Positions 9,881 through 56,601 of a stretch of 64,000 nucleotides of DNA are shown here, in pieces. Below the pieces are notes generated by a model. It was not told the DNA's origin. It worked only from the letters and a program-made list of their open reading frames with translations, and ran no database searches. The DNA comes from Escherichia coli (GTDB taxonomy: Bacteria > Pseudomonadota > Gammaproteobacteria > Enterobacterales > Enterobacteriaceae): assembly GCF_044647545.1 (NCBI RefSeq), contig NZ_CP172818.1; one strand, 5' to 3'. How positions within the stretch are numbered: position 1 is the first letter of the stretch; each line of letters begins with the position of its first letter. The position numbers and the translations under genes were made by a program.

Positions 9881-10001
<121 letters not shown>

Positions 10002-10062
10002 CGGATAGTTTTTACGATAAAGTACCTGGTTTGCTTCACAACTACCGGCGCGAACAAAAAAA

Positions 10063-11403
10063 TTAACTCAACAGCTGGAACGCAATCATCCCAACGATGG
10101 CACCAACAGTGCCGAGTATGGTTTCCATCATGGTCCAGGTTTTCAGCGTTTCGGCTTCGGTCGCGCCGGTAAATTTACCGAACAACCAGAAACCGGCGTC
10201 GTTAACGTGGCTGACAACAATCGAACCACCGGCGATACAAATCGACAGCGCCGCCATTTGCGCACCGGAGTAGTTCAGTTGTTCAATAACCGGCATCACC
10301 AGTCCCACCGCCGTTAAACAGGCAACGGTGGCAGAACCCTGAATGATGCGCACTGCAGCTGCCAGCACGAAGCAGGTGATGGCAATCGGCAGGCCCATGC
10401 CGGTTAACGCTTCGCCCAGTGCCGGACCTACGCCTGAGTCAACCAGCACCTGTTTGAACACGCCGCCCGCACCAATCACCAGCAGAATGATCCCCGCCGG
10501 TTGCAGCGCGTGACCGCAAATCTCCATCACTTTGTCTTTTGGCATGCCCTGACGCATTGCCAGACCGTAAATCGCCACCAGACAAGCAACCAGAATCGCG
10601 GTAAACGGATGGCCGATAAACTCGAACCATTCGTAAGCGGTAGAGCCTTCTGGCACAAAACGCGCGGCAATGGTTTTCAGCCCCACCAGCACCAGTGGCA
10701 ACAGGATCAGCGACAGGCTGAATCCGAAGGACGGCATTTTGCCTTCGCCGAGATGTGGTTCGCTGATGTCGTCAGGAATATGCAGCTCCACGTAGCGGCT
10801 GATGAAATTACCCCACAGCGGCCCGGCAATAATCATTCCCGGAATTGCCGCACACAGGCCAATCAGGATCATCCAGCCAAAGTCGGCGTTCATCTGCGAT
10901 GCCAGCAGCATTGGCGCTGGTCCAGGCACCAGGAACGCAGCCGCTGCCGCCACGCCTGCGAATAATGGGATTACCAGCTTCACCAGGTTCGTACCGGTGT
11001 GGCGCGCCATTGAGAAAGCAACGCTAATCAGCAGAACAATCGCCACTTCAAAGAACAGCGGTAGCGCACAGACCAGCCCCGCAAGACCGATGGCATAATG
11101 CGCGCGACTGTGACCGAAGGATTTGAGCATTTTGACGGCAATCTGATCGACTGCGCCGGTTTCATGTAAGATCTTGCCAAACATGGCTCCCAGGGCGACA
11201 ACCACCGCCAGAAAGCCGAGGGTGCCTCCCATCCCTTTTTCCATCGTCGCTGCGATTTTATCGAGCGGCATACCGGAAAAAAGGCCAGCCCCCATGGACA
11301 CCACCATCAAAGCCAGGAAAGCGTGCATACGCGCCTTCATGACTAAAAACAGCAGCAGTAAAACAGACCCTACTGCTGTTAAAACAAGCGTTAATGTAGT
11401 CAC
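10063..11403 (-). CDS. gntU: Low-affinity gluconate transporter GntU
   Basis: ORF track 446 aa, polytopic membrane protein; MTTLTLVLTAVGSVLLLLFLVMKARM N-terminus. Confidence 0.93.
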   Translation of the reverse strand: MTTLTLVLTAVGSVLLLLFLVMKARMHAFLALMVVSMGAGLFSGMPLDKIAATMEKGMGGTLGFLAVVVALGAMFGKILHETGAVDQIAVKMLKSFGHSRAHYAIGLAGLVCALPLFFEVAIVLLISVAFSMARHTGTNLVKLVIPLFAGVAAAAAFLVPGPAPMLLASQMNADFGWMILIGLCAAIPGMIIAGPLWGNFISRYVELHIPDDISEPHLGEGKMPSFGFSLSLILLPLVLVGLKTIAARFVPEGSTAYEWFEFIGHPFTAILVACLVAIYGLAMRQGMPKDKVMEICGHALQPAGIILLVIGAGGVFKQVLVDSGVGPALGEALTGMGLPIAITCFVLAAAVRIIQGSATVACLTAVGLVMPVIEQLNYSGAQMAALSICIAGGSIVVSHVNDAGFWLFGKFTGATEAETLKTWTMMETILGTVGAIVGMIAFQLLS

Positions 11404-50278: not shown

Positions 50279-53200
50279 ATGAGCGGAAAACCGGCGGCGC
50301 GTCAGGGCGACATGACGCAGTATGGCGGTAGCATTGTTCAGGGTTCTGCCGGGGTGCGTATTGGTGCCCCCACCGGCGTGGCCTGTTCAGTGTGCCCCGG
50401 CGGGGTGACGTCCGGTCATCCGGTCAATCCGCTGCTGGGTGCAAAGGTCCTTCCCGGCGAAACCGACCTTGCCCTGCCCGCCCCGCTGCCGTTCATCCTC
50501 TCCCGCACCTACAGCAGTTACCGGACAAAAACGTCCGCGCCGGTGGGGAGCCTCGGCCCCGGCTGGAAAATGCCTGCGGATATCCGCTTACAGCTGCGCG
50601 ATAACACACTGATACTCAGTGATAACGGCGGCAGAAGCCTGTATTTTGAGCACCTGTTTCCCGGTGAGGACGGTTACAGCCGCAGCGAGTCACTCTGGCT
50701 GGTGCGCGGCGGCGTGGCGAAACTGGATGAAGGTCACCGGCTGGCCGCACTCTGGCAGGCGCTGCCGGAAGAGCTTCGCCTGAGTCCGCATCGTTATCTG
50801 GCGACGAACAGTCCACAGGGGCCGTGGTGGGTACTCGGCTGGTGTGAGCGGGTGCCGGAGGCGGATGAGGTGCTGCCTGCGCCGCTGCCGCCGTACCGGG
50901 TACTGACCGGGCTGGTGGACCGCTTCGGGCGCACACAGACGCTCCACCGCGAAGCCGCCGGTGAATTCAGCGGCGAAATCACCGGCGTGACGGATGGTGC
51001 CGGGCGTCACTTCCGGCTGGTACTGACCACGCAGGCGCTGCGGGCAGAAGAGGCCCGGCAGCAGGCCATTTCCGGCGGGACGGAACCGTCCGCTTTTCCT
51101 GATACCCTGCCGGGTTACACCGAATATGGCCGGGACAACGGTATCCGCCTGTCCGCCGTGTGGCTGACGCACGACCCGGAATATCCGGAGAATTTACCTG
51201 CCGCGCCGCTGGTGCGCTATGGCTGGACGCCACGCGGCGAACTGGCGGTGGTGTATGACCGCAGCAATACACAGGTGCGCAGCTTTACTTACGATGATAA
51301 ATACCGGGGCCGGATGGTGGCGCACCGTCACACGGGCCGGCCGGAAATCCGTTACCGTTACGACAGTGACGGGCGGGTGACAGAACAGCTAAACCCGGCA
51401 GGCTTAAGCTACACCTATCTGTTATGAGCAAAACCGCATCACCATCACCGACAGCCTGAACCGCCGTGAAGTCCTGCATACGCAGGCGAAGGCGGCCTGA
51501 AGCGGGTGGTGAAAAAGGAACACGCGGACGGCAGCGTCACGCAGAGTCAGTTTGACGCGGTGGGCAGGCTTAAGACACAGACGGATGCCGCAGGCCGGAC
51601 AACAGAATACAGCCCGGATGTGGTGACGGGCCTCATCACGCGCATCACCACGCCGGATGGCAGGGCATCGGCGTTTTACTATAACCACCACAGCCAGTTA
51701 ACGTCAGCCACCGGGCCTGACGGGCTGGAAATACGCCGGGAATATGATGAATCCGGCCGTCTGATTCAGGAAACCGCCCCTGACGGCGATATCACCCGCT
51801 ACCGTTATGATAATCCACACAGTGACTTCCCCTGCGCAACGGAAGATGCCACCGGCAGCCGGAAAACCATGACGTGGAGCCGTTACGGTCAGTTGCTGAG
51901 CTTCACCGACTGTTCCGGCTACCAGACCCGTTATGACCATGACCGCTTCGGGCAGATGACGGCGGTGCACCGCGAGGAAGGCCTGAGCCAGTGCCGCGCA
52001 TACGACAGCCGTGGACAGTTAATTGCCGTGAAAGACACGCAGGGCCATGAAACGCGGTATGAATACAACATCGCCGGTGACCTGACCGCCGTCATTGCCC
52101 CGGACGGCAGCAGAAACGGGACACAGTACGATGCGTGGGGAAAGGCCATCCGTACCACGCAGGGCGGGCTGACCCGCAGTATGGAATACGATGCTGCAGG
52201 ACGGGTCATCCGCCTGACAAACGAAAACGGCAGCCACACCACCTTCCGTTACGATGTACTCGACCGGCTGATACAGGAAACCGGCTTTGACGGCCGCACA
52301 CAGCGTTACCACCACGACCTGACCGGCAAACTTATCCGCAGCGAGGATGAGGGGCTGGTCACCCACTGGCACTATGACGAAGCAGACCGCATCACGCAGC
52401 GAACGGTGAATGGTGAAACCGCAGAACAGTGGCGGTACGACGAACGCGGCTGGCTGACACAAATCAGCCATCTCAGCGAAGGGCACCGGGTGACGGTGCA
52501 TTACGGGTATGATGAGAAAGGCCGCCTGACCGGTGAGCGCCAGACGGTGCATCATCCGCAGACGGAAGCACTGCTCTGGCAGCATGAGACCAGACATGCG
52601 TACAACGCGCAGGGGCTGGCGAACCGCTGTATACCGGACAACCTGCCCGCCGTGGAATGGCTGACTTATGGCAGTGGTTACCTGGCAGGGATGAAACTCG
52701 GCGACACACCGCTGGTGGAGTACACCCGCGACCGCCTGCACCGGGAAACGCTGCGCAGCTTCGGCCGTTATGAACTCACCACCGCTTATACCCCTGCCGG
52801 GCAGTTACAGAGCCAGCACCTGAACAGCCTGCAGTATGACCGCGATTACACCTGGAACGACAACGGCGAACTCATTCGCATCAGCAGCCCGCGCCAGACC
52901 CGGAGTTACAGCTACAGCGACTCCGGCAGGCTGACCGGCGTTCACACCACCGCAGCGAACCTGGATATCCGCATCCCGTATGCCACGGACCCGGCAGGTA
53001 ACCGCCTGCCCGACCCGGAGCTGCACCCGGACAGCACCCTCAGCATGTGGCCGGATAACCGTATCGCCCGTGACGCGCACTATCTTTACCGGTATGACCG
53101 TCACGGCAGGCTGACGGAGAAAACCGACCTCATCCCGGAAGGGGTTATCCGCACGGATGATGAGCGGACTCACCGGTACCATTACGACAGCCGGCACCGG

Positions 53201-54514
53201 CTGGTGCACTACACGCGGACACAATATGCAGAGCCGCTGGTCGAAAGTCGCTATCTTTACGACCCGCTGGGCCGCAGGGTGGCAAAACGGGTGTGGCGGC
53301 GTGAACGGGACCTGACGGGCTGGATGTCGCTGTCACGGAAACCGGAAGTGACCTGGTACGGCTGGGACGGCGACCGCCTGACCACGATACAGAACGACAG
53401 AACCCGCATCCAGACGGTTTATCAGCCGGGGAGCTTCACACCACTCATCAGGGTCGAAACCGCCACCGGTGAGCAGGCGAAAACGCAGCGCCGCAGCCTG
53501 GCGGATGCGCTTCAGCAGTCCGGCGGCGAAGACGGTGGCAGTGTGGTGTTCCCGCCGGTGCTGGTGCAGATGCTCGACCGGCTGGAAAGTGAAATCCTTA
53601 CTGACCGGGTGAGTGAGGAAAGCCGCCGCTGGCTGGCATCGTGCGGCCTGACGGTGGCGCAGATGCAAAACCAGATGGACCCGGTGTACACGCCGGCGAG
53701 AAAAATCCACCTGTACCACTGCGACCATCGCGGCCTGCCGCTGGCGCTTGTCAGCACGGAAGGGGCAACAGAATGGTGCGCAGAATACGATGAGTGGGGC
53801 AACCTGCTGAATGAAGAGAACCCGCACCAGCTGCAACAGCTTATCCGCCTGCCGGGTCAGCAGTATGATGAGGAGTCAGGCCTGTATTACAACCGCCACC
53901 GCTATTATGACCCGCTGCAGGGGCGGTATATCACTCAGGATCCGATTGGGCTGAAGGGGGGATGGAACCTGTATGGATATCAATTGAATCCGATATCAGA
54001 CATCGACCCCCTGGGTTTATCTATGTGGGAGGATGCAAAATCGGGGGCATGTACTAATGGTCTTTGCGGCACACTATCCGCTATGATAGGTCCAGATAAG
54101 TTTGATTCTATAGATAGCACCGCATATGACGCCTTAAATAAAATAAATAGCCAATCTATTTGCGAAGATAAAGAGTTCGCTGGTTTAATATGTAAGGATA
54201 ATAGTGGCAGATATTTCTCAACAGCACCTAACCGAGGGGAAAGAAAAGGATCATATCCATTCAATAGCCCTTGCCCTAATGGTACTGAGAAAGTATCAGC
54301 TTATCATACTCATGGTGCAGATAGTCATGGAGAATATTGGGACGAAATATTTTCAGGCAAAGATGAGAAAATAGTTAAAAGTAAAGATAACAATATCAAG
54401 TCATTTTATTTGGGCACGCCCAGTGGTAATTTTAAAGCAATAGATAACCACGGGAAGGAAATAACAAACGGAAAAGGATTACCTAATGTCTGCAGAGTTC
54501 ATGGTAATATGTAA
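50279..54514 (+). pseudogene. rhsB: Rhs core protein RhsB with C-terminal toxin tip; interrupted by an in-frame TGA at 51425-51427, frame resumes downstream (ORF track segments 50279..51427 and 51506..54514)
   Basis: N-terminus MSGKPAARQGDMTQYGGSIVQGSAGVRIGAPTGVACSVCPGG; YD-repeat core; core-tip boundary motif DPIGLKGGW near 53940; both segments in the same frame, total 1412 codons as for intact RhsB. The break could be a real disruption or sequence error. Confidence 0.8.
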
Positions 54515-54869
54515 AAAAATATTTTTTAGGAACTGTGTCATTGTATCTTTGTTTGTTTTTACATACAACACATGGGCGCAGTGTAATAATAATATTAAAA
54601 TAATGCGCAAGTATGAAAGTGAGGGTAAATATACCGTTAGAAATTTGGTTAAAAATAAAGCTATAGCATTGGAATTAGCTGAGATATATGTTAAGAATCG
54701 TTATGGGCAGGATGCCGCAGAAGAAGAAAAACCATATAAAATCACTGAGTTAACAACAAGTTGGGTTGTTGAAGGCACCATTCACTCAGACCAAATTGCT
54801 GGTGGGGTTTTTATTATAGAAATAGGCAAAAATGATGGGGTAATTCTGAATTTTGGCCACGGAAAATAA
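54486..54869 (+). CDS. yhhH: Probable Rhs immunity protein YhhH, overlapping the 3-prime end of rhsB
   Basis: ORF track 127 aa; start lies 29 nt inside the rhsB tip, the usual toxin-immunity arrangement; AT-rich like the tip. Confidence 0.75.
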
Positions 54870-54958
54870 GTATGTAAGGATAATCAAACATCGTGTGCGC
54901 TGATGGCAGAGTAGGTGGAGGACTCCAGACAGTCAAACGATAAAAAAAGATAGCCTTT

Positions 54959-55357
54959 ATGGAGGCTCCTGCAATGTCAAATACATACCAGAAAAGAAAG
55001 GCAAGTAAAGAGTATGGTTTATATAATCAATGTAAGAAACTAAATGATGATGAATTATTTCGCTTACTTGATGATCACAATTCCTTGAAAAGGATTTCAT
55101 CTGCCAGAGTATTACAGTTAAGAGGTGGGCAAGACGCTGTTAGATTGGTAATTGAGTTCTGCTCTGATAAAAATTATATCCGTAGAGATATCGGAGCATT
55201 TATACTCGGGCAAATAAAAATTTGCAAAAAATGCGAAGATAATGTGTTTAATATTTTGAACAATATGGCATTGAATGATAAGAGCGCTTGCGTTCGAGCT
55301 ACGGCAATCGAGTCAACGGCCAGGGAAAGATCATCAAAAGTACACTTTTTGTACTAA
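54959..55357 (+). CDS. Short HEAT-repeat-like protein, possibly a truncated YibA-like orphan remnant of an Rhs element
   Basis: ORF track 132 aa; AT-rich; real start may be the internal Met at 54974 (MSNTYQKRK). Resemblance to YibA is from memory, not a search. Confidence 0.45.
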   Translation: MEAPAMSNTYQKRKASKEYGLYNQCKKLNDDELFRLLDDHNSLKRISSARVLQLRGGQDAVRLVIEFCSDKNYIRRDIGAFILGQIKICKKCEDNVFNILNNMALNDKSACVRATAIESTARERSSKVHFLY

Positions 55358-55464
55358 ATAATTCGCATTTTATGTTTAAAAATTGAGATATTCCTCATTA
55401 CCTGAAGCTGTTTTTTATTGCTTATACATGATCAAATACTCCTTACATAATTAAGGAGAACAAA

Positions 55465-56601
55465 ATGGTACTTAAAAAATTGATGGAACATATTTCTATT
55501 ATCCCCGATTACAGACAAGCCTGGAAAGTGGAACATAAATTATCGGACATTCTACTGTTGACTATTTGTGCCGTTATTTCTGGTGCAGAAGGCTGGGAAG
55601 ATATAGAGGATTTTGGGGAAACACATCTCGATTTTTTGAAGCAATATGGTGATTTTGAAAATGGTATTCCTGTTCACGATACCATTGCCAGAGTTGTATC
55701 CTGTATCAGTCCTGCAAAATTTCACGAGTGCTTTATTAACTGGATGCGTGACTGCCATTCTTCAGATGATAAAGGCGTCATTGCAATTGATGGAAAAACG
55801 CTCCGGCACTCTTATGACAAGAGTCGCCGCAGGGGAGCGATTCATGTCATTAGTGCGTTCTCAACAATGCACAGTCTGGTCATCGGACAGATCAAGACAG
55901 ATGAGAAATCCAATGAGATTACAGCTATCCCAGAACTTCTTAACATGCTGGATATTAAAGGAAAAATCATCACAACTGATGCGATGGGTTGCCAGAAAGA
56001 TATTGCAGAGAAGATACAAAAACAGGGAGGTGATTATTTATTCGCTGTAAAAGGAAATCAGGGGCGGCTAAATAAAGCCTTTGAGGAAAAATTTCCACTG
56101 AAAGAATTAAATAATCCAGAGCATGACAGTTACGCAATGAGTGAAAAGAGTCACGGCAGAGAAGAAATCCGTCTTCACATTGTTTGCGATGTCCCTGATG
56201 AACTTATTGATTTCACGTTTGAATGGAAAGGTCTGAAGAAATTATGCGTGGCAGTCTCCTTTCGGTCAATAATAGCAGAACAAAAGAAAGAGCCAGAAAT
56301 GACGGTCAGATATTATATCAGTTCTGCTGATTTAACCGCAGAGAAGTTCGCCACAGCAATCCGAAACCACTGGCACGTGGAGAATAAGCTGCACTGGCGT
56401 CTGGACGTGGTAATGAATGAAGACGACTGCAAAATAAGAAGAGGAAATGCAGCAGAATTATTTTCAGGGATACGGCACATCGCTATTAATATTTTGACGA
56501 ATGATAAGGTATTCAAGGCAGGGTTAAGACGTAAGATGCGAAAAGCAGCCATGGACAGAAACTATCTGGCGTCAGTCCTTGCGGGGAGCGGGCTTTCGTA
56601 A
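55465..56601 (+). CDS. yhhI: H-repeat-associated (ISAs1-family) transposase-like protein YhhI
   Basis: ORF track 378 aa; [51 protein letters not shown] typical of H-rpt ORFs found at the distal end of Rhs elements. Confidence 0.88.

Follow-up and report, generated by a model that had tools for sequence, protein, structure and literature searches.

The RhsB tip and YhhH of Escherichia coli: a JAMM-fold toxin domain that may act in the cell envelope

In which compartment, and on what, does the C-terminal tip of RhsB act? Knowledge of the Rhs elements of E. coli K-12 goes back to the 1980s, yet as far as we know no activity has been demonstrated for the tips of RhsB and RhsD. The question is raised here by a 64,000-nucleotide (nt) stretch of E. 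coli DNA (contig NZ_CP172818.1; the window), in which the end of rhsB is overlapped by the small gene yhhH. An earlier examination of the letters without database searches (the sequence-only reading) had proposed that the two are an Rhs C-terminal toxin tip and its overlapping immunity gene. This holds, as the boundary motif, the Pfam matches, and the overlap of 29 nt are all present. The gene pair is the known RhsB/YhhH pair of K-12, and both of its protein families have had names since 2012. What may be new is the proposal, drawn from sequence comparisons, that the tip family as a whole has its site of action in the periplasm, a proposal at odds with the current annotation of the domain as an RNase.

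The RhsB tip and its family

The motif DPIGLKGGW starts at position 53939 and a second motif, DPLGL, starts at 54005, giving a core boundary of the PxxxxDPxGL type. This core/tip demarcation motif, which is the Rhs autoproteolysis motif (53939 to 54019, + strand), was also found by phmmer in the solved type VI secretion system (T6SS) Rhs proteins 8qjc, 8qjd, 7q97, and 7pq5; by analogy with these, the Rhs protein should be cleaved after the second DPxGL. The sequence-only reading had named the motif correctly but had placed the boundary at 53936, one codon before its actual position. It was right that a GC-rich core gives way to AT-rich DNA: the GC content is 0.611 in the core (51506 to 53938), 0.378 in the tip (54020 to 54514), and 0.333 in yhhH. 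It was also right that the tip has about 190 residues and is rich in Cys. The tip is 191 amino acids (aa) long from DPIGL to the stop codon, or 164 aa counted after DPLGL, and has six Cys (3.7%; codons at 54050, 54065, 54161, 54191, 54272, and 54491). The 127-aa yhhH open reading frame (ORF) starts, as claimed, exactly 29 nt inside the toxin ORF, with its ATG at 54486 and the toxin stop codon TAA at 54512 to 54514. The sequence AAGGA, a Shine-Dalgarno sequence, lies 7 nt upstream of the yhhH ATG.

The fold of the tip, which that reading did not recognize, is that of an already described family. The tip (54020 to 54514, + strand; 164 aa plus stop) matched Pfam DUF4329 (PF14220) with an E value of 1.6e-39 over model positions 2 to 112 of 116; the match covers 54116 to 54466. 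DUF4329 was described in 2012 as Tox-JAB-2, a JAB domain with a deaminase-like fold and conserved E, H[ST]H, S, and D that is found after RHS repeats, and its immunity partner is Imm-NTF2 family 2 (PMC3482391). A match to a characterized toxin family was to have made the tip known rather than novel; the match obtained is confident, and it is to a named family, not to a biochemically characterized one. In Foldseek comparisons the tip was 99% identical to RhsB of E. coli K-12 (P16917) and 50% identical to RhsD (P16919). It differs by 1 residue from the tip of the intact E. coli copy in NZ_CP046006 (locus L001), and YhhH differs by 4. When the PDB was searched by sequence, the tip matched the Rhs DPxGL motif only and no solved DUF4329 structure, and no NCBIfam model was found for either the tip or YhhH.

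Word-indexed homologue searches returned mostly E. coli copies, and diverse relatives were obtained by exhaustive representative searches and profile searches. The exhaustive search gave 755 representative clusters of DUF4329 relatives at an E value of ≤0.001, and most relatives are C-terminal tips of Rhs/YD proteins. Motif residues were counted in 116 domain sequences from the 150 best-scoring of the 755 relatives and are numbered from the L at 54017. E53, S113, and D116 were invariant (116/116); H97 and H99 were each present in 115 of the 116 sequences, and T98 was present in 113. The corresponding codons in the tip are E at 54173, H-T-H at 54305 to 54313, S at 54353, and D at 54362. The columns of E53, H97, H99, S113, and D116 were likewise invariant in a 61-sequence alignment (A2), and AlphaFold2 run on A2 gave a model with a predicted local distance difference test score (pLDDT) of 93.9 and a predicted template modeling score of 0.88. 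The tip has the deaminase-like/JAB fold, and peptidases dominate its nearest folds. It is a DUF4329/Tox-JAB-2 domain of the JAMM/MPN+ (Zn-hydrolase, deaminase-like) fold with a complete E...H-T-H...S-x-x-D metal/catalytic motif.

Of the 52 sequences with Cys59 of the tip, 51 also have Cys86, a covariation that fits a predicted disulfide between the two. C12, C17, C49, and C159 (54050, 54065, 54161, and 54491) were confined to the enterobacterial RhsB/RhsD-like subfamily. Within it, C12 and C17 co-occurred in 13/13 sequences and the other subfamily Cys pairs in 10 to 12 of 13 to 14, which suggests two further, subfamily-specific disulfides beyond the widespread C59-C86. A separate observation concerns an entry in AFDB, A0A077ZH48, a 1,605-aa protein assigned to Trichuris trichiura, annotated with RHS, DUF4329, Imm-NTF2-2, and DDE transposase domains, and sharing 99% identity with the RhsB tip of E. 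coli. The entry almost certainly reflects contamination of the whipworm assembly with E. coli DNA, fused across rhsB-yhhH-yhhI.

Predicted export signals on YhhH and other immunity partners

The gene yhhH (54486 to 54869, + strand) encodes a 127-aa protein with a predicted Sec signal in residues 1 to 31 (54486 to 54578) and an Imm-NTF2-2 domain in residues 60 to 127 (54663 to 54866). The match to Imm-NTF2-2 (PF15631) had an E value of 4.7e-25 and covered the full model (1 to 68). YhhH is 96 to 99% identical to E. coli YhhH clusters; a sequence search of the PDB with YhhH gave nothing significant. The predicted signal ends at a conserved Ala31 (NTWA/QC). Among homologues down to 58% identity, the basic n-region, the hydrophobic run, and the Ala at position 31 (-1) are kept while the residues diverge, and A31 was invariant in alignment A3. 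A reading of YhhH as a lipoprotein, through the Cys33 that follows WAQ, was rejected because Cys33 is not conserved among homologues. The domain itself resembles periplasmic or extracellular folds (PepSY, cystatin, and colicin M immunity). In YhhH, an Imm-NTF2-2 protein, an N-terminal export signal is thus followed by a small alpha+beta domain that is cystatin/PepSY/NTF2-like. The N-termini of its paralogue YbbC, which begins MKYSSIFSMLSFFILFAC, and of the metagenomic Imm-NTF2-2 proteins P0306, P0317 (MKARIQIAMISLLVISC), P0318 (MRICLLSLLFLSILNGQLSFA), and P0319 (MRKLTFIFSFFLLFTCLAFA) are also clearly signal or lipobox sequences. Lipobox-like sites are present in YbbC, in P0317, and in the protein from locus L011, described below.

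We read the DNA downstream of the toxin gene at 10 further, diverse DUF4329 loci. At 9 of the 10 (L002, L004, and L006 to L012), the ORF right after the toxin gene starts with a signal peptide or a lipobox-like sequence. On four unrelated contigs, metagenomic or genomic (L004, L009, L010, and L011), the product of the next gene is an Imm-NTF2-2 protein that bears a signal peptide or lipobox. At L007 (Salmonella), L008, L002 and L012 (which share one unannotated family), and L006, the next gene comes from other families and again has a signal or lipobox-like start. The signal-bearing ORFs that follow DUF4329 toxins therefore belong to at least four unrelated families, and several of them directly adjoin the toxin gene or overlap its end. 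In the sister clade Tox-JAB-1, the immunity partner, Imm65, has also been reported to be a lipoprotein (PMC3482391).

Two of these partners had looked like cytoplasmic counterexamples, a possibility that we rejected when a mechanical listing of ORFs gave longer, signal-bearing ones. Public gene calls start the L002 and L006 immunity genes at an internal Met (7791 and 9598, respectively), which masks the signal peptides. In the full ORFs (7641 to 8114 in L002 and 9523 to 9909 in L006), the initiating ATG and the toxin stop codon overlap (ATGA). The full-length starts add MKTKLLIFVLLLASISC in L002 and MRRLFKVKKISIAIFIITLLFQEISMA in L006, and the signal peptide is present only when translation starts at the overlapping ATG. 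The same internal-Met miscall may be common for immunity genes in metagenome annotations.

We counted as signal bearing any protein in which an uncharged run of 10 or more residues, with a mean hydropathy of ≥1.5, begins within residues 1 to 20. This rule was passed by 11 of 12 immunity proteins versus 8 of 34 long ORFs of the window (Fisher P of about 1e-5 when L011 and L012, judged by eye, are included). Because the Imm-NTF2-2 members do not count as independent cases, it is fairer to count families, of which there are at least four unrelated ones, all of them exported.

L002 7641 to 8114 and L012 2738 to 3202 encode homologous-looking exported proteins of about 155 aa that follow unrelated metagenomic DUF4329 toxins and match no Pfam family. 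Motifs such as ..G[FM][FM].Y.(F)E.T..Y....DY.Y... are common to both proteins, which may represent an undescribed immunity family for Tox-JAB-2. The toxin of L006 is a 2,341-aa SpvB/FG-GAP/YD protein with a DUF4329 tip, and its immunity gene is followed by two more genes for predicted lipoproteins, at 9954 to 10700 (MKKISILFLIFLLGC) and 10711 to 11388 (MKTLKHILTFLILATFLTAC). These may be additional immunity or accessory genes.

In characterized systems of interbacterial toxins, exported immunity proteins go with toxins that act in the periplasm, such as the Tae, Tge, and Tle effectors and colicin M, whereas nuclease toxins have cytoplasmic immunity proteins. On the four contigs where Imm-NTF2-2 was found beside a DUF4329 toxin, it always carries an export signal, which argues for an extracytoplasmic target. 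Given the exported partners, the RhsB tip therefore probably acts outside the cytoplasm, as far as sequence comparison can tell. To our knowledge, every characterized JAMM/MPN+ enzyme cleaves a peptide or isopeptide bond. The tip being a JAMM-type hydrolase, hydrolysis of an amide bond in the envelope is therefore the most plausible activity. By analogy with those enzymes, peptidoglycan or the lipoprotein Lpp is a tentative choice of substrate, and one that we rate below an even chance.

The scheme that best explains these observations, and that we favor slightly, is that the RhsB tip is a T6SS-delivered periplasmic Zn amidase or (iso)peptidase that is blocked by exported YhhH. In strains with an intact rhsB, the Rhs shell would enclose the tip and cleave it off after DPLGL, by analogy with other Rhs proteins, and the T6SS would deliver the tip into the periplasm of a neighboring cell. 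There the tip, as a zinc-dependent amidase or (iso)peptidase, would attack a substrate in the envelope, the likeliest targets being a stem-peptide or cross-link bond of peptidoglycan or the isopeptide link between Lpp and peptidoglycan. YhhH would be exported by Sec and would bind and block the toxin in the periplasm, sparing sibling cells; the 29-nt overlap and the AAGGA sequence would couple yhhH expression to that of rhsB. That DUF4329/Tox-JAB-2 tips in general, those of K-12 RhsB and RhsD included, are periplasm-acting JAMM-type zinc (iso)peptidases that cut a cell-wall bond is possible, and we rate it somewhat below an even chance.

Several points weigh against this explanation. On the side of the enzyme, HxH and SxxD are separated by 13 residues in the RhsB tip and by 12 in most relatives, versus 7 in canonical JAMM proteins; 54 of the 116 family members have no Cys or only one; and peptidoglycan and Lpp were guessed as substrates from what JAMM enzymes do chemically. 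An analogy with RadC led Zhang et al. (2012) to predict a nuclease, and they described the Tox-JAB clades as RadC-like and without the ubiquitin-tail tunnel (PMC3482391). On the side of immunity, the signal peptides were called by visual inspection and a crude hydropathy rule rather than by a trained predictor. In E. coli YhhH an unusually long n-region (16 residues) precedes a short h-region (11 residues), and an internal start at Met40 would yield a cytoplasmic protein. No credible immunity ORF was found after the DUF4329 toxin of L005, which is uninformative. On the side of delivery, the window holds no T6SS genes, no vgrG, and no eagR.

The window copy and competing explanations

Between about 50 and 57 kb, the ORF list and homologous annotated loci give the gene order nikD-nikE-nikR, rhsB, yhhH, a truncated HEAT-repeat gene, yhhI (ISEc1 transposase), yhhJ, and rbbA. 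The locus nikR-rhsB-yhhH-yhhI-yhhJ is shared among E. coli genomes, as annotated in homologous loci. The neighbors of rhsB are nikR upstream and yhhJ downstream, and vgrG or eagR adjoins it on neither side.

The sequence-only reading had not mentioned that rhsB is broken in this genome. Its 5' fragment (50279 to 51427, + strand), a 382-aa ORF with a DUF6531/PAAR-like N terminus and the first YD repeats, ends at a stop codon brought in by a frameshift. The fragment matched NCBIfam RHS_core with an E value of 4e-236 over profile positions 1 to 389; its N terminus matched Pfam DUF6531 (E value, 1.1e-17), and the PAAR motif is weak (E value, 0.18). An out-of-frame stretch follows (51422 to 51484, + strand) between a +1 insertion, an extra T at 51422, and a -1 deletion, a G missing after 51484. 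These frameshifts were called from a MAFFT alignment to the intact rhsB of NZ_CP046006, with which a three-frame translation agrees, and in that alignment they are the only indels in the 4.6-kb rhsB-yhhH pair. The 62-nt out-of-frame stretch has a stop codon at 51425 to 51427, which splits rhsB into ORFs of 382 and 1,002 aa. Thus, in the window copy the N-terminal delivery domain, the shell, and the tip do not share one uninterrupted ORF; homologous rhsB genes have no such break. The Rhs/YD-repeat core, or shell (51506 to 53938, + strand; GC content, 0.61), is placed by the ORF at 51506 to 54514, by composition, and by annotated homologous rhsB genes. The two indels together restore the reading frame.

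None of 5,426 complete E. coli genomes has these two frameshifts, and the best match to the stretch among those genomes was at most 98.8%. For 53700 to 55500 the best match among complete E. coli genomes was 98.8%, and the divergence of the region from its best E. coli matches is 1.2 to 3.5%. From 50279 to 54869, rhsB-yhhH differs from the intact L001 copy at 160 of 4,592 aligned positions (3.5%). These figures suggest that the DNA probably comes from a divergent lineage of Escherichia or Shigella not represented among the complete genomes searched.

Downstream of yhhH lies a truncated yibA-like HEAT-repeat gene (54959 to 55357, + strand; NCBIfam PRK09687, E value of 3.6e-48, profile positions 1 to 126 of 285), which the homologous locus annotates as an incomplete pseudogene. 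It appears to be what remains, as an orphan, of an RhsA-type immunity gene severed by the insertion sequence (IS) element; it is part of the Rhs locus and lies outside the RhsB/YhhH pair. The next gene, yhhI (55465 to 56601, + strand), encodes the transposase of ISEc1, an ISAs1-family "H-repeat" element, as taken from the ORF list and homologous annotation, and bounds the AT-rich Rhs tip region. A promoter and terminator scan of 53800 to 55500 found nothing above shuffled expectation that bears on the rhsB/yhhH pair. Three terminator-like sites were found in the region versus 1.1 expected. One hairpin with a T-run, a match to the consensus only, lies at 54410 to 54423, inside the toxin ORF and about 60 nt before the yhhH start.

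Because rhsB carries two frameshifts, the RhsB toxin is probably not deployed from this window copy; the intact yhhH could still guard against RhsB-type toxins of other strains. It is a possibility, to which we give somewhat less than an even chance, that the module in this genome is altogether a decaying relic, with the tip, yhhH, the yibA fragment, and ISEc1 all inert, horizontally acquired DNA. The two frameshifts favor this, as do the truncated yibA-like gene and IS element adjoining the pair and the lack of T6SS genes in the window. However, the tip and yhhH frames are intact and only 1 and 4 residues removed from an intact E. coli copy, the frame-restoring pair of indels could be sequencing errors, and immunity genes are useful even without a toxin of one's own. 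Decay of the module is compatible with any mechanism and concerns expression in this strain only.

The other explanations concern the mechanism. The tip might act in the periplasm on another substrate: a lipid-linked precursor (lipid II, as colicin M does), an outer membrane lipoprotein, or an envelope biogenesis factor. Nothing specific counts against this, which differs from the proposed amide hydrolysis in its substrate alone, and we regard it as unlikely.

The tip might instead be a nuclease or RNase that acts in the cytoplasm, a RadC-like JAB active site degrading RNA or DNA, with YhhH neutralizing it there. This is close to what is found in the literature. DUF4329 has been reported in more than 150 Salmonella serotypes, with several copies in Shiga toxin-producing and enterohemorrhagic E. 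coli strains, and later T6SS surveys label the domain an RNase, citing Ma et al. (2017). According to a review, Ma et al. tested only Rhs-CT1 (metallopeptidase-4), Rhs-CT3 (REase-3), and Rhs-CT5 (toxin_55), and Rhs-CT5 to Rhs-CT8 are classed as "putative RNase" (PMC6730261). The RNase label in later papers is a predicted class only. According to a 2024 preprint, Rhs-Tox-JAB-2 has neither a known catalytic activity nor a known substrate. We found no assay of DUF4329/Tox-JAB-2 activity in the open-access literature searched, Ma et al. (2017) being taken through the papers that cite it. The literature searched also gave nothing relevant that links JAMM to the T6SS and the periplasm or ybbC to rhsD. 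The statement of the sequence-only reading that the activity and target of the tip are not established thus agrees with the literature searched, in which we found no experiment that establishes either.

For a nuclease, the class was predicted and not assayed (PMC6730261), and the nearest folds of the tip are mostly peptidases. Export signals were found on all sampled immunity partners, so none of them has the cytoplasmic character of a nuclease immunity protein. We know of no immunity protein of a nuclease toxin with export signals like these, and we consider a cytoplasmic nuclease improbable. Still more improbable is a JAMM peptidase that cuts a cytoplasmic protein (a C-terminal tail or a conjugate, as Cap3 and Mec do), with the hydrophobic N termini of the immunity proteins being membrane anchors or annotation artifacts, as signal or lipobox N termini recur in at least four unrelated immunity families, several immunity ORFs abut or overlap the toxin end (with the L002 and L006 signals encoded only from the overlapping ATG), and the tip has a conserved Cys pair.

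For the window alone, the finding is ordinary: the gene pair is known, and frameshifts have probably inactivated it. The DUF4329 family of toxins is large, however, and its RNase annotation in genome surveys rests on prediction. If DUF4329 tips are indeed periplasmic JAMM-type zinc (iso)peptidases that cut a cell-wall bond, the RNase or nuclease label that is spreading through T6SS effector surveys is wrong, they would be the first JAMM/MPN+ enzymes shown to be antibacterial envelope toxins, and their immunity proteins would be exported cystatin/PepSY-like inhibitors. The export signals on the partners make a comparison of toxicity in the cytoplasm and in the periplasm a cheap and decisive test. 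Support for the periplasm would alter the annotation and add a new enzymatic class to the effectors that target the cell wall.

Relation to known systems

The closest known system is RhsB/YhhH of K-12, which has the same locus and gene order and a tip that is 99% identical; the window copy differs from it by the two frameshifts. The Tox-JAB-2/Imm-NTF2-2 pair (PMC3482391) is matched in full, with both Pfam matches strong, the E/H[ST]H/S/D residues complete, and the domain located after RHS repeats. Zhang et al. (2012) listed Imm-NTF2-2 in E. coli only (PMC3482391), whereas here it was also found at L004, L009, L010, and L011.

The JAMM/MPN+ isopeptidases (AfJAMM, 1r5x; Pyrococcus furiosus JAMM1, 5ld9; BRCC36, 5cw3; AMSH/Sst2, 4jxe; Rpn11, 4o8x; and Cap3 of the cyclic-oligonucleotide-based antiphage signaling system, 9ild) are only 11 to 20% identical to the tip. 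In contrast to them, the tip has a spacer of 12 to 13 residues rather than 7, an extra N-terminal segment of two helices, and conserved Cys. Its context is that of a secreted toxin without a known ubiquitin-like substrate. RadC (JAB domain, 2qlc) differs in being cytoplasmic, its own activity is unproven, and it has neither a toxin context nor an exported partner.

The resemblance of YhhH to PepSY/cystatin-type inhibitors (YpeB, 5boi; YpmB, 2gu3; and the M4/M36 metalloprotease propeptides 3nqz and 4k90) is at the level of fold only. The shared unit, alpha+beta4 and 70 residues long, is a fold that occurs commonly; there is no sequence similarity, and Pfam places YhhH under the NTF2 fold.

From the Tae/Tai amidases, Tge/Tgi muramidases, Tle/Tli lipases, and colicin M/Cmi, the RhsB toxin differs in having a JAMM fold and, by analogy with other Rhs proteins, would differ in being delivered as an Rhs-encapsulated tip. 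What RhsB/YhhH has in common with such periplasm-acting pairs, on our heuristic judgment of signals, is an immunity protein with a Sec or lipoprotein signal.

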